Shown here: positions 39,501-45,500 of the stretch, one piece after another | How positions within the stretch are numbered: the stretch's first letter is position 1 | Layout of the letters: every line of letters begins with the position of its first letter | Source of the DNA: a virus | Lineage: Duplodnaviria > Heunggongvirae > Uroviricota > Caudoviricetes | IMG/VR virus record: IMGVR_UViG_2651869695_000008 | Strand: one strand, 5' to 3' | Length of the DNA stretch: 45,692 nt | Position numbers: made by a program

Positions 39501-42500
39501 GTGGACGAAAGAAATTTACGCCTTTCCTGATAAGCAGAATGGCATCGTTCCGGTAGTGGGCGTTGATGGCTGGTCCCGCATCATCAATGAAAACCAGCAG
39601 TTTGATGGCATGGACTTTGAACAGGACAACGAATCCTGCACATGCCGTATTTACCGCAAGGACCGTAATCATCCGATCTGCGTTACCGAATGGATGGATG
39701 AATGCCGCCGCGAACCATTCAAAACCCGCGAAGGCAGAGAAATCACGGGGCCGTGGCAGTCGCATCCCAAACGGATGTTACGGCATAAAGCCATGATTCA
39801 GTGTGCCCGCCTGGCCTTCGGATTTGCTGGTATCTATGACAAGGATGAAGCCGAGCGCATTGTCGAAAATACCGCATACACTGCAGAACGCCAGCCGGAA
39901 CGCGACATCACTCCGGTAAACGATGAAACCATGCAGGAGATTAACACTCTGCTGATCGCCCTGGATAAAACATGGGATGACGACTTATTGCCGCTCTGTT
40001 CCCAGATATTTCGCCGCGACATTCGCGCATCGTCAGAACTGACACAGGCCGAAGCAGTGAAAGCTCTTGGATTCCTGAAACAGAAAGCCGCAGAGCAGAA
40101 GGTGGCAGCATGACACCGGACATTATCCTGCAGCGTACCGGGATCGACGTGAGAGCTGTCGAACAGGGGGATGATGCGTGGCACAAATTACGGCTCGGCG
40201 TCATCACAGCTTCAGAAGTTCATAACGTAATAGCAAAACCCCGCTCCGGAAAAAAGTGGCCTGACATGAAAATGTCCTACTTCCACACCCTGCTGGCTGA
40301 GGTTTGCACCGGTGTGGCTCCGGAAGTTAATGCTAAGGCGCTGGCATGGGGAAAACAGTACGAGAACGACGCCAGAACTCTGTTTGAATTCACTTCCGGC
40401 GTGAATGTTACTGAATCCCCGATCATCTATCGCGACGAAAGTATGCGTACCGCCTGCTCTCCCGATGGTTTATGCAGTGACGGCAATGGCCTTGAGCTGA
40501 AATGCCCGTTTACCTCCCGGGATTTCATGAAGTTCCGGCTCGGTGGTTTCGAGGCCATAAAGTCGGCTTACATGGCCCAGGTGCAGTACAGCATGTGGGT
40601 GACGCGAAAAGATGCCTGGTACTTTGCCAACTATGACCCGCGTATGAAGCGTGAAGGCCTGCATTATGTCGTGGTTGAGCGGGATGAAAAGTACATGGCG
40701 AGTTTTGACGAGATGGTGCCGGAGTTCATCGAAAAAATGGACGAGGCACTGGCTGAAATTGGTTTTGTATTTGGGGAGCAATGGCGATGAAGCATCCTCA
40801 CGATAATATCCGGGTAGGTGCGATCACTTTCGTCTACTCCGTTACAAAGCGAGGCTGGGTATTTCCCGGCCTTTCTGTTATCAGAAATCCCCTGAAAGCA
40901 CAGCGGCTGGCTGAGGAGATAAATAATAAACGGGGAGCTGTATGCACAAAGCATCTCCCGTTGAGTTAAGAACGAGTATCGAGATGGCACATAGCCTCGC
41001 TCAAATTGGAGTCAGGTTTGTGCCAATACCAGTAGAAACAGACGAAGAATTTCATACGTTAGCCGCATCCCTTTCACAAAAGCTGGAAATGATGGTGGCG
41101 AAAGCAGAAGCAGATGAGAGAGACCAGGTATGACAACCACTGAATGCATTTTTCTGGCAGCGGGCTTCATATTCTGTGTGCTTATGCTTGCCGACATGGG
41201 GCTTGTTCAATGACACCTCAGCAAGAAAACGCCCTTCGCAGCATTGCCCGTCAGGCTAATTCTGAAATCAAAAAAGCCAGACAGCAGTTTCCGGATAAAA
41301 ACGTCGATGACATTTGCCGTAGCGTACTAAAGAAGCACCGCGAAACGGTAACGCTGATGGGATTCACACCGACTCATTTAAGCCTGGCGATCGGCATGTT
41401 GAACGGCGTCTTTAAGGAACGGTGAACATGAAAAGCAAAATCATCAGGGAGCTACAGGCTCCTTTTTTATTATTCGCATTCACCCTCAAGCGTATTAACC
41501 AACAATTCAGGGATTAATGAAAGATGGCAGACATAATTGATTCAGCATCAGAAATTGAAGAATTACAGCGCAACACAGCAATAAAAATGCGCCGCCTGAA
41601 CCACCAGGCTATATCTGCCACTCATTGTTGTGAGTGTGGCGATCCGATAGATGAACGAAGACGACTGGCCGTTCAGGGTTGTCGGACTTGTGCCAGTTGC
41701 CAGCAAGATCTGGAGCTTATCAGTAAACAGAGAGGTTCGAAGTGAGCGAAATTAACTAGAAGCCAAAGATAAAATCATCGCTGAGCAGGAGAAAATCGCT
41801 AACGGAGAAAAGACAGTAAGTCAGTATATGAAAACCGCATGATATCATCAGATAAAAATCGGTCGTAAAGCGAAATATTAATACCAGAACAAACGAGTCG
41901 AGGTAAATTATATTACCTCGATAAATTAACTAAAACTTGCCCGCTATATACTATATCATTCAGTATCATCACGCGCGGTCTGTGCATATGTCACTACCGC
42001 ACCTAATATATTAATTTTCTTTTCAACATAGATAATATTATCGTACTCATAATTGCCATACGGATAGCAAATGCGAATATTCTCATGTAGATCGGGGTCA
42101 TCCACCTCAGCTCCAGAACAACTTTTTGAACTACCGGAAGTATACCGATACGGTGCAACATAAGACGATGTCTCTCCAGGCAAAAAATAAGTTAGTGTCG
42201 TAAGGGGTATAATCAGAAAAAATCCAGCAAATATGCACATCCCTGCATAAACCTTAAGGTATGCTGACAGACTCTTCCAGCCGCTTTGTTTTACTATCCC
42301 CTTCTTAACCCAAAACAGAGATAACAGAAAAGCTATTCCCATGCTAAACAGAATGTAATAGTGGAATATACTCTGATTAAGAAACGTGACCCTGTAGATA
42401 TCTGCCCGCCACCAGAAGAAAAGGAAAATAAAGATCAGCCCTGAAACTGTCATGCAAATCAAATAAGGATACGAATCTTTTTTCATGTTTAGCGCCCATA

Positions 42501-45500
42501 AAATTTTTCCTGACCCGGACAAATTTACCATCCATTTTTTGCGCAGAAAATAGCTCATTACTTACTGCACAATAATACACAAAATTGCGTAAATTTTTTG
42601 CATGGATTTTAGCTCTTTCAGCCGACATTTAAGGGGTAAATAGCATTTCCTAAAAGCAACTGCACCAACCCAACAGAATGGGCTACCGCTTACGTTGAGA
42701 GCAAAAAAGTGTATAGCAGCAATGAACAGCATCCTCGCACTGACGAGGATTTCTTTTATCTGAACTCGCTACGGCGGGTTTTGTTTTATGGAGATGATAA
42801 ATGCACTTCCGAGTCACAGGTGAATGGAATGGAGAACCATTCAACAGAGTTATCGAAGCCGAGAACATCAGCGACTGCTATGACCACTGGATGCTGTGGG
42901 CGCAGATAGCACATGCAGACGTAACCAATATTCGAATTGAAGAACTGAAAGAACACCAAGCCGCCTGATGGCGGTTTTTTCTTGCGTGTAATTGCGGAGA
43001 CTTTGCGATGTACTTGACACTTCAGGAGTGGAACGCTCGCCAGCGACGCCCAAGAAGCCTTGAAACAGTTCGTCGATGGGTGCGCGAATGCAGGATATTC
43101 CCTCCTCCGGTTAAGGATGGAAGAGAATATCTGTTCCACGAATCAGCGGTAAAGGTTGACTTAAATCGACCAGTAACAGGTAGCCTTTTGAAGAGGATCA
43201 GAAATGGGAAGAAGGCGAAGTCATGAGCGCCGGGATTTACCCCCTAACCTTTATATAAGAAACAATGGATATTACTGCTACAGGGACCCAAGGACGGGTA
43301 AAGAGTTTGGATTAGGCCGAGACAGGCGAATCGCAATCACTGAAGCTATACAGGCCAACATTGAGTTATTTTCAGGACACAAACACAAGCCTCTGACAGC
43401 GAGAATCAACAGTGATAATTCCGTTACGTTACATTCATGGCTTGATCGCTACGAAAAAATCCTGGCCAGCAGAGGAATCAAGCAGAAGACACTCATAAAT
43501 TACATGAGCAAAATTAAAGCAATAAGGAGGGGTCTGCCTGATGCTCCACTTGAAGACATCACCACAAAAGAAATTGCGGCAATGCTCAATGGATACATAG
43601 ACGAGGGCAAGGCGGCGTCAGCCAAGTTAATCAGATCAACACTGAGCGATGCATTCCGAGAGGCAATAGCTGAAGGCCATATAACAACAAACCCTGTCGC
43701 TGCCACTCGCGCAGCAAAATCAGAGGTAAGGAGATCAAGACTTACGGCTGACGAATACCTGAAAATTTATCAAGCAGCAGAATCATCACCATGTTGGCTC
43801 AGACTTGCAATGGAACTGGCTGTTGTTACCGGGCAACGAGTTGGTGATTTATGCGAAATGAAGTGGTCTGATATCGTAGATGGATATCTTTATGTCGAGC
43901 AAAGCAAAACAGGCGTAAAAATTGCCATCCCAACAGCATTGCATGTTGATGCTCTCGGAATATCAATGAAGGAAACACTTGATAAATGCAAAGAGATTCT
44001 TGGCGGAGAAACCATAATTGCATCTACTCGTCGCGAACCGCTTTCATCCGGCACAGTATCAAGGTATTTTATGCGCGCACGAAAAGCATCAGGTCTTTCC
44101 TTCGAAGGGGATCCGCCTACCTTTCACGAGTTGCGCAGTTTGTCTGCAAGACTCTATGAGAAGCAGATAAGCGATAAGTTTGCTCAACATCTTCTCGGGC
44201 ATAAGTCGGACACCATGGCATCACAGTATCGTGATGACAGAGGCAGGGAGTGGGACAAAATTGAAATCAAATAATGATTTTATTTTGACTGATAGTGACC
44301 TGTTCGTTGCAACAAATTGATAAGCAATGCTTTTTTATAATGCCAACTTAGTATAAAAAAGCAGGCTTCAACGGATTCATTTTTCTATTTCATAGCCCGG
44401 AGCAACCTGTGAACACATTTTCAGTTTCCCGTCTGGCGCTGGCATTGGCTTTTGGCGTGACGCTGACCGCCTGTAGCTCAACACCGCCCGATCAACGTCC
44501 TTCTGATCAAACCGCGCCTGGTACCTCTTCGCGCCCGATTCTGTCGGCAAAAGAAGCGCAGAATTTCGATGCTCAACACTATTTTGCATCCCTGACACCA
44601 GGTGCGGCAGCGTGGAATCCTTCCCCGATTACCCTGCCTGCGCAACCTGACTTTGTTGTCGGCCCGGCGGGTACTCAAGGTGTAACGCATACCACGATTC
44701 AGGCGGCGGTAGATGCGGCAATTATCAAGCGTACCAACAAGCGCCAGTATATTGCCGTGATGCCTGGTGAGTATCAGGGAACGGTGTATGTCCCTGCCGC
44801 TCCGGGTGGAATTACTCTGTACGGTACAGGTGAAAAACCGATTGATGTGAAGATTGGGCTTTCCCTTGATGGTGGCATGAGCCCTGCCGACTGGCGTCAC
44901 GACGTCAACCCGCGCGGCAAATATATGCCAGGTAAACCGGCGTGGTATATGTACGATAGCTGCCAGAGTAAACGCAGCGACAGTATCGGTGTTCTCTGCT
45001 CTGCGGTCTTCTGGTCACAAAACAATGGCCTGCAACTGCAAAACCTGACCATCGAAAACACGCTGGGCGATAGCGTAGATGCGGGTAACCATCCGGCGGT
45101 GGCACTGCGTACTGATGGCGACAAAGTGCAGATCAATAACGTCAACATTCTCGGTCGTCAGAACACCTTCTTTGTCACCAACAGCGGTGTGCAAAACCGT
45201 CTGGAAACGAATCGTCAGCCGCGTACGCTGGTGACCAACAGTTACATCGAAGGAGATGTGGATATCGTTTCTGGTCGCGGCGCAGTGGTGTTCGATAACA
45301 CCGAATTCCGCGTGGTGAACTCCCGTACCCAGCAAGAAGCGTATGTGTTTGCACCGGCTACGCTGTCCAACATTTACTACGGTTTCCTCGCCGTAAACAG
45401 CCGTTTCAATGCTTCCGGTGATGGTGTGGCGCAACTGGGCCGCTCGCTGGATGTTGATGCCAATACCAACGGTCAGGTGGTGATCCGTGATAGCGCCATC

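Follow-up and report, generated by a model that had tools for sequence, protein, structure and literature searches.

Several small envelope proteins encoded by phages and prophages, such as HK97 gp15, T4 Imm and Sp, and P1 Sim, block entry after adsorption. HK97 gp15 has been cited as an example of a moron (PMC6832061). SieA of phage P22 is an inner-membrane protein of 162–164 amino acids (aa) that blocks DNA injection; type A SieA has three predicted transmembrane (TM) domains, types B and C have one more TM helix, i.e. four, and the conserved SieA motif, FxRYPxEAxxFNK, is predicted to be cytoplasmic (PMC10883804). Here, we analysed a 45,692-nucleotide (nt) stretch of Caudoviricetes DNA (IMG/VR record IMGVR_UViG_2651869695_000008; hereafter the window), a lambdoid prophage that occupies the lambda attachment site, with the host gene ybhC beyond int. 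Between the early-left small open reading frames (ORFs) and xis, the window carries an ATG-to-stop ORF of 200 codons on the minus strand (41956..42558). The original prediction, made from the sequence alone, had taken this gene for a moron, and our results support that reading: the gene is an insert in a slot of other genes, runs on the opposite strand, is AT-rich, has a conserved promoter-like element and a downstream hairpin, and moves between unrelated prophage families. From its position and topology, a role in superinfection exclusion or defence is plausible. Databases already list its product as a hypothetical protein; in kind, the gene belongs with the prophage membrane-protein morons, a well-known class of which it is an uncharacterised representative.

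The nearest functional analogue is P22 SieA. Both genes are prophage-encoded on the strand opposite to their neighbours, with a promoter of their own (a putative one in the window), and both products measure about 160–175 aa. With a probable length of 176 aa and three predicted helices, the window protein agrees with SieA in size and number of TM helices as far as prediction goes. However, the conserved motif of SieA is predicted to be cytoplasmic, whereas the conserved domain of the 176-aa product is predicted to face the periplasm. The genomic setting differs as well, as SieA is encoded between genes 16 and 9 of P22-like phages and not in the exo–xis region or the P2 hotspot described below. 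HK97 gp15 has a similar moron organisation. The fold predicted for the window protein differs from those of HK97 gp15, T4 Imm and Sp and P1 Sim, and tblastn with the window protein matched no phage record besides 434, mEp332 and 2B8.

The boundaries of the insert are clear from the alignment with lambda. Homology covers 40700–41757 and then only 42731–43300; the 973 bp in between have no lambda match and stand in place of lambda ea22 and ea8.5. The GC content is 0.34–0.41 over 41750–42800 and 0.44–0.53 on both flanks. All neighbouring genes lie on the plus strand, so that the ORF is antisense to each of them. The original prediction had described exactly this arrangement, namely an AT-rich, opposite-strand gene replacing the ea22/ea8.5 region between the early-left small ORFs and xis, and its coordinates proved to be exact. 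The slot is the one that the lambda exo–xis genes ea22 and ea8.5 occupy, from orf73 to lambdap35/xis; in contrast to the window gene, the lambda genes lie on the pL strand and encode soluble proteins that are unrelated in sequence to the product of 41956..42558.

The ORF at 41956..42558 is a real gene under strong purifying selection. Its dN/dS values are 0.09–0.16 against homologues of 60–78% amino-acid identity, with synonymous sites near saturation. These values, and a family of about 60 representatives at 50% identity, set the gene apart from an ORF that arose by chance. Searching 1.84 billion representative proteins with a profile recovered these 60 relatives, none of them fused to another domain; complete relatives are typically about 165–190 aa long, and the named ones come from Escherichia, Salmonella, Klebsiella, Enterobacter, Citrobacter, Cedecea, Phytobacter, Erwinia, Proteus and Providencia. 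Repeating the search with a broader profile neither extended the family nor brought in relatives with a Pfam domain. The narrow taxonomic range and the lack of a known domain would fit an ORF that lacks function or is merely selfish and confers no phenotype. However, the selection signal over saturated synonymous divergence comes close to refuting this explanation. The architecture of three TM helices and a β-domain is also kept at 17–30% identity, and, with annotation artefacts discounted, each context examined has an intact ORF. We therefore consider a functionless ORF extremely improbable.

Three observations bear on the start codon. Homologues outside the lambdoid cassette all begin at the residue aligned with M25, with the sequence MKK(D/Y)SYP; an Escherichia coli copy in P2 context (record L029) has an in-frame TAA within the 24-codon extension, according to a by-eye reading of the alignment; and the conserved −10 element lies between the two candidate ATGs. 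For these reasons, the true product is probably the 176-aa protein that starts at ATG 42486 (42486..41956); its transcript would have a leader of about 30 nt. Thus, the originally predicted 200-aa protein stands as an exact description of the ORF, but its first 24 codons are probably untranslated.

Uncertainty over the start has left traces in several annotations. The Prokaryotic Genome Annotation Pipeline (PGAP) flags E. coli copies in P2 context (L030 3604–4179, L031 3594–4169) as ‘frameshifted’. On translation, these copies are intact 176-aa ORFs, and the flag probably arose because the 200-aa form, whose N-terminal extension is spurious, served as the model. Abundant database entries of 112 aa (P0130, P0080) have their start inside the gene, either at a GTG preceded by AAGAGGGGGG or at a Met. 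The frame upstream of these starts is open and codes for TM1 and TM2, and the entries look like start-codon miscalls of the same gene. The family PHROG 1416 (function unknown) matches residues 113–200 with a 90-position profile (E 7e-51), which spans only the last TM helix and the β-domain; it probably inherits the miscalls in the same way as the 112-aa entries. Upstream of the gene, a 56-aa ORF (42562–42732) has been annotated in phage 434. Its start codon coincides with the joint of lambda homology (42731), it crosses the boundary of the core shared with P2-like prophages (42623), and P2 copies keep just its 3′ end, which is the repeat and promoter region. This ORF is probably not a gene.

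The region upstream of the likely start contains an extended −10 element, TGGTAAATT (hexamer TAAATT, 42527–42522). The pattern TG(G/A)TAA(A/T/G)TT recurs in the window and in 8 of 13 homologue contexts, 35–39 nt before the start codon, and is present even in Cedecea, Citrobacter and Enterobacter copies, although the DNA upstream of these cannot otherwise be aligned. A weak −35-like hexamer, TTTTCT, which matches the consensus at three of six positions, is also kept in the E. coli and Salmonella P2 copies. From this conservation we infer a promoter upstream of the gene. Farther upstream, three direct repeats read TTACGC, TTGTGT and TTGTGC in the window and TTGTGC three times in P2 copies (L029 6895–6920); E. 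coli, Salmonella and Enterobacter copies (also L014, L037) share the exact 10-bp phasing. The repeats are possibly an activator site, and their presence suggests that expression is regulated and not constitutive.

In the annotation of 434, part of the repeat region is marked as a CII-consensus site. As a lambda CII site (TTGY-N6-TTGY), the repeats would have the wrong spacing to the conserved −10 when judged by eye, and they also occur in P2 prophages, which are not known to have CII. By eye, the repeats do not match the P2 Ogr site (TGT-N12-ACA) either, and both a marbox and a DnaA box were poor matches.

Downstream of the gene, a terminator scan identified a hairpin at 41921–41898 (−12.9 kcal/mol, z −3.6). 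The hairpin at the aligned position of the P2 copy L029 is weaker (−8 kcal/mol, z −1.4), and one stem pair appears, on a by-eye reading, to have changed from A-U to G-C. The hairpin is likely the terminator of the cassette. On the other strand, the scan found two tandem terminator hairpins with U tracts (−20.9 kcal/mol, z −3.8), which lie within or adjoin t-L4, a feature annotated in the 1990s int–xis record of phage 434 (M60848) that maps to about 42727–42757 of the window. They face transcription in the pL direction after its antisense passage through the cassette. No RNA family was matched by Rfam over 41400–43300.

The unit formed by promoter region, gene and hairpin has moved between prophage families. 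A core of the cassette (41866–42623) is common to P2-like prophages, with 76% DNA identity to a segment of one E. coli prophage and 71% to the Salmonella ones (blastn against L029, L013 and L014). Moreover, six homologue lineages, at 55–78% identity, reside between the portal gene gpQ and the replication gene gpA of P2-like prophages, convergent with gpA. These comprise one lineage each from E. coli (P0039), Klebsiella michiganensis (P0055) and Enterobacter hormaechei (P0051), two from Salmonella (P0044, P0048), and P0080. The gpA–gpQ (old/tin) locus of P2 is a hotspot of anti-phage systems according to Rousset et al. (PMC9122126), and Vassallo et al. independently confirmed this (PMC9519451). 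The residence of six lineages in this hotspot argues for a function in exclusion or defence. The family homologues occupy exactly the locus of known cargo such as old, tin and PARIS, the window copy itself being lambdoid; they differ from this cargo in that the family is neither among the described systems nor matched by PADLOC. A search of the PMC9122126 supplements by sequence or accession likewise did not find the protein among the tested systems. In E. coli P2-like prophages (L030 4283–4654; L031 4272–4643), a truncated Ea22-like gene follows the cassette, and a ParM/StbB pair comes next. The Ea22-like fragment suggests that the cassette came from the lambdoid exo–xis region together with flanking DNA.

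Structure prediction and hydropathy agree on three helices, and a β-domain follows them in the model. Hydropathy cores at residues 29–52, 63–85 and 98–127 (200-aa numbering) correspond to three TM helices. The AlphaFold2 (AF2) model, with a predicted local distance difference test (pLDDT) score of 87.7, has helices at residues 5–29, 38–61 and 70–101 and five strands (176-aa numbering); the C-terminal β-domain modelled alone reaches a pLDDT of 90. The original prediction of about four TM helices is thus to be corrected to three. Its description of a Cys/Tyr-rich C-terminal domain holds for tyrosine, with 9 Tyr among the C-terminal 74 residues, and not for cysteine, of which there are two. These two cysteines flank the second and third strands and are the sole invariant residues in 28 diverse members of the family, down to 17% identity. 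Conservation is highest in the β-domain and lowest in the TM2–TM3 loop, which carries a mean of 3.6 Lys and Arg in 17 residues versus 1.3 in the first loop. By the positive-inside rule, this charge distribution would place the N-terminus and the TM2–TM3 loop in the cytoplasm, and the β-domain is therefore predicted to be periplasmic. The invariant cysteine pair fits a putative disulfide in that compartment. Taken as predicted, an inner-membrane protein with a periplasm-facing domain suits a block of phage entry.

Together with residence in the P2 hotspot, the membrane location could also point to an abortive-infection effector comparable to RexB or to single-gene membrane effectors, which would depolarise or permeabilise the membrane once infection is sensed, so that the cell dies before phage release. 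Membrane proteins among hotspot-encoded defences are often regarded as suicide effectors (PMC9122126), and homologues of the window gene lie in the same hotspot. However, the gene stands alone without a sensor partner, its product has no predicted cytoplasmic domain, the predicted cytoplasmic loop of about 17 residues is the least conserved part of the protein, the conserved surface is predicted to be periplasmic, and PADLOC gives no match. Abortive infection is therefore an improbable explanation.

The likeliest role of the protein is superinfection exclusion through a block of phage entry, which we put somewhat below an even chance, and we propose the following mechanism for it. The cassette promoter, on the strand opposite to pL transcription, would be free to fire in the lysogen while pL is repressed. 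It would drive expression of the 176-aa protein, and the downstream hairpin would end the transcription unit. When pL is active, N-antiterminated transcripts would cross the cassette in antisense, and those without antitermination would stop at the tandem terminators (42731–42781). The protein would insert into the inner membrane through three helices with its N-terminus in the cytoplasm, and display a small, disulfide-bonded β-barrel on the periplasmic face, packed against the first periplasmic loop. This domain might then bind the ejection or tape-measure apparatus of an incoming phage, or an inner-membrane component that the apparatus needs; lambda and 434, for instance, need the inner-membrane proteins ManYZ for entry (PMC6832061). 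Binding would stop genome translocation at the DNA-entry step. By analogy, the predicted placement is the one at which known exclusion proteins hinder genome entry, namely the periplasmic face of the inner membrane.

Several results weigh against an exclusion moron. A tblastn search of 50,697 phage records found the protein encoded in three only (434, mEp332 and 2B8). Pfam and NCBIfam gave no match to the protein, and PADLOC-DB 2.0 returned 0 defence families at E values up to 1. Homology to P22 SieA, including its motif FxRYPxEAxxFNK, was rejected, as BLASTP gave an E value of 34 and hhalign a probability of 0.2%. In the literature, queries with accessions, locus tags and phage names yielded no functional data on the protein or on ECs0804, the copy in E. 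coli O157:H7. A σ70 consensus scan identified no promoter upstream of the gene; the candidate promoter is weak by consensus, and the scan missed it because its −35 hexamer (TTTTCT) is poor. Furthermore, the P2 hotspot also holds non-defence cargo, e.g. ParM/StbB. Lastly, some family members are chromosomal and have no phage genes near them. Copies of the Enterobacter mori type lie between LysR and GGDEF genes, the copy of Klebsiella sp. R390 lies between a phosphotransferase system (PTS) operon and a LysR gene, and a Cedecea copy is found among small unknown ORFs.

Because such chromosomal copies stand beside ordinary genes, an envelope function that is not directed against phages has to be weighed. 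The protein might be a lysogenic-conversion or envelope-fitness factor that benefits the lysogen by protecting or tuning its envelope, for example through immunity to a periplasm-acting bacteriocin, contact-dependent inhibition (CDI) or type VI secretion system (T6SS) toxin, or through resistance to stress or host factors. In line with this, members beside LysR, GGDEF and PTS genes lack a phage context, a distant member is located on a plasmid-like element that also encodes ParM/StbB, an integrase, ArdC and CbtA, the gene is kept in the defective enterohaemorrhagic E. coli (EHEC) prophage Sp3 that carries nleB/C/H/D effectors, and conservation is concentrated in the predicted periplasmic domain. 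However, no toxin or partner gene consistently adjoins the gene, Pfam reveals no similarity to colicin or other immunity families, and the recurrence of the gene in the P2 anti-phage hotspot speaks for a role directed at phages. We regard an envelope factor as unlikely, though as the main rival to exclusion. In the Enterobacter chromosomal copies (L016/L017/L018 6085–7510), the gene starts 16 nt after the LysR stop codon, on the same strand and before the GGDEF gene. These LysR-adjoining copies are without the extended −10 and are probably co-transcribed with the regulator.

Two further protein classes were considered and rejected. The protein is not an outer-membrane lipoprotein excluder of the Cor or Llp type, as it has no lipobox, and Cys108 (200-aa numbering) is unconserved, with Ser, Ile, Leu or others in relatives. 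A pore-forming colicin immunity protein was set aside given that no Pfam immunity domain is present and no toxin gene adjoins in any context examined. Foldseek against BFVD returned nothing below E 0.01, and a sequence profile search of the PDB gave no match.

Near-identical copies of the cassette are found in phages and in E. coli. Over 41750–42800, the DNA is 99.8% identical to phage mEp332 and 98.8–98.9% identical to phages 434 (CPT_434_36, ‘putative membrane protein’) and 2B8, and these closest copies have the same neighbours. Among 5,426 complete E. coli genomes, 905 contain at least 80% of this segment, and these include O157:H7. The copy of O157:H7 Sakai is ECs_0804 in the defective prophage Sp3 (L033 7910–8512); it is annotated as intact (603 nt), whereas int, bet and the portal gene of Sp3 are pseudogenes. 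CPT_434_36, XSB40999 of mEp332, the 2B8 copy and ECs_0804 (WP_000120056 in strain 2159) are all the same gene and differ in the called start only, giving 188 aa in 434 and 200 aa in mEp332 and with PGAP, compared with 176 aa in relatives. None of the 434, mEp332, 2B8 and Sakai entries has an assigned function. Sakai Sp3 also contains the effectors nleB2-1, nleC, nleH1-1 and nleD, and phage 434 has an NleC-like gene near attP (L001 6455–7051).

The carriers and their hosts bear on another candidate function, the conversion of serotype or cell surface, in which the protein would act, by inhibition or modification, on a periplasm-facing enzyme of the inner membrane that takes part in O-antigen, enterobacterial common antigen (ECA) or capsule assembly. 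Att-proximal conversion genes of P22-, Sf6-, epsilon15- and D3-type phages act on surface-polymer assembly. The window gene, which encodes a membrane protein, is similarly near xis and int, on the opposite strand and AT-rich, and in P22 the minus strand carries gtrC and gtrB immediately downstream of the tailspike gene 9. However, the carrier phages are propagated on K-12 (the host of mEp332 is MG1655), and K-12 is not known to make O-antigen. The same protein also occurs across many serotypes and genera, with no glycosyl- or acyl-transferase partner and no Gtr-like domain. Surface conversion is thus highly unlikely.

The features of the locus are compiled in Table 1. In the neighbourhood of the cassette, annotations vary between records. 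At 41144–41425, the longest ORF has 93 aa; the product annotated in 434 and mEp332 has 71 aa (216 nt) and starts further downstream. The lambda orf61/orf73 region is annotated inconsistently between records, and orf73 is unannotated in the lambda record examined. Phage 434 has an additional 345-nt ORF (ORF114) between ORF55 and xis (L001 4232–4667), from which the window (42977–42980) and mEp332 are free.

Table 1. Features of the cassette, its product and the adjoining genes in the window.
Feature	Position	Strand	Remarks
Cassette in place of lambda ea22 and ea8.5	41758–42730		973 bp, AT-rich; lambda alignment, lambda map, GC profile
Mobile core common with P2-like prophages	41866..42623		promoter region, gene and hairpin
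Likely coding sequence	41956..42486	−	176 aa (MKKDSYPYL...ARDDTE); three TM helices and C-terminal β-domain
24-codon N-terminal extension as called by PGAP	42487..42558	−	probably 5′ untranslated region/promoter; absent from homologues outside the cassette
TM helices	residues about 5–28, 39–61, 74–102 (176-aa form)		hydropathy
C-terminal domain, residues 103–176 (176-aa form)	41959..42180	−	five-stranded small β-barrel, predicted periplasmic
Invariant Cys123	42118–42120	−	
Invariant Cys140	42067–42069	−	
Extended −10	42522..42530	−	35 nt upstream of ATG 42486, downstream of ATG 42558
Putative weak −35-like hexamer	42545..42550	−	17 nt from −10
Three direct repeats, 10-bp spacing	42567..42592	−	about −50 to −80 from the putative transcription start
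56-aa ORF upstream	42562..42732	−	‘putative membrane protein’ in 434, partially ORF-22+ in M60848
Hairpin, 9-bp stem, weak U tail	41898..41921	−	35 nt past the stop codon
Two tandem terminator hairpins	42731..42781	+	just upstream of ORF55
bet, exo, orf60a (DUF1317), orf63 (DUF1382)		+	upstream of the cassette
orf73-like TraR/DksA zinc finger gene	41524–41745	+	
ORF55	42801–42968	+	
xis	43008–43226	+	
int	43204–44274	+	

The gene belongs to a classical model phage, 434, to about one in six complete E. coli genomes and to the EHEC prophage Sp3, and it has been annotated inconsistently, as 200, 188 or 112 aa and with false ‘frameshifted’ flags. It is a clean example of a single cassette moving between the lambdoid exo–xis slot and the P2 defence hotspot. 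Speculatively, and with some doubt, it may be the founder of an Enterobacterales-restricted family of single-gene superinfection-exclusion proteins with a periplasmic, disulfide-locked mini β-barrel, in which a promoter–gene–terminator cassette shuttles between lambdoid exo–xis regions, the P2 gpA–gpQ locus, plasmids and chromosomes, and expression is set by a factor acting on the three 10-bp-phased TTGTGC repeats. If the protein does block entry, it would represent a further, compact family of single-gene excluders equipped with a periplasmic recognition domain, and would provide a tool for dissecting the passage of siphophage and myophage genomes across the inner membrane. It would then also bear on the host range of therapeutic phages in E. 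coli, Salmonella, Klebsiella and Enterobacter.

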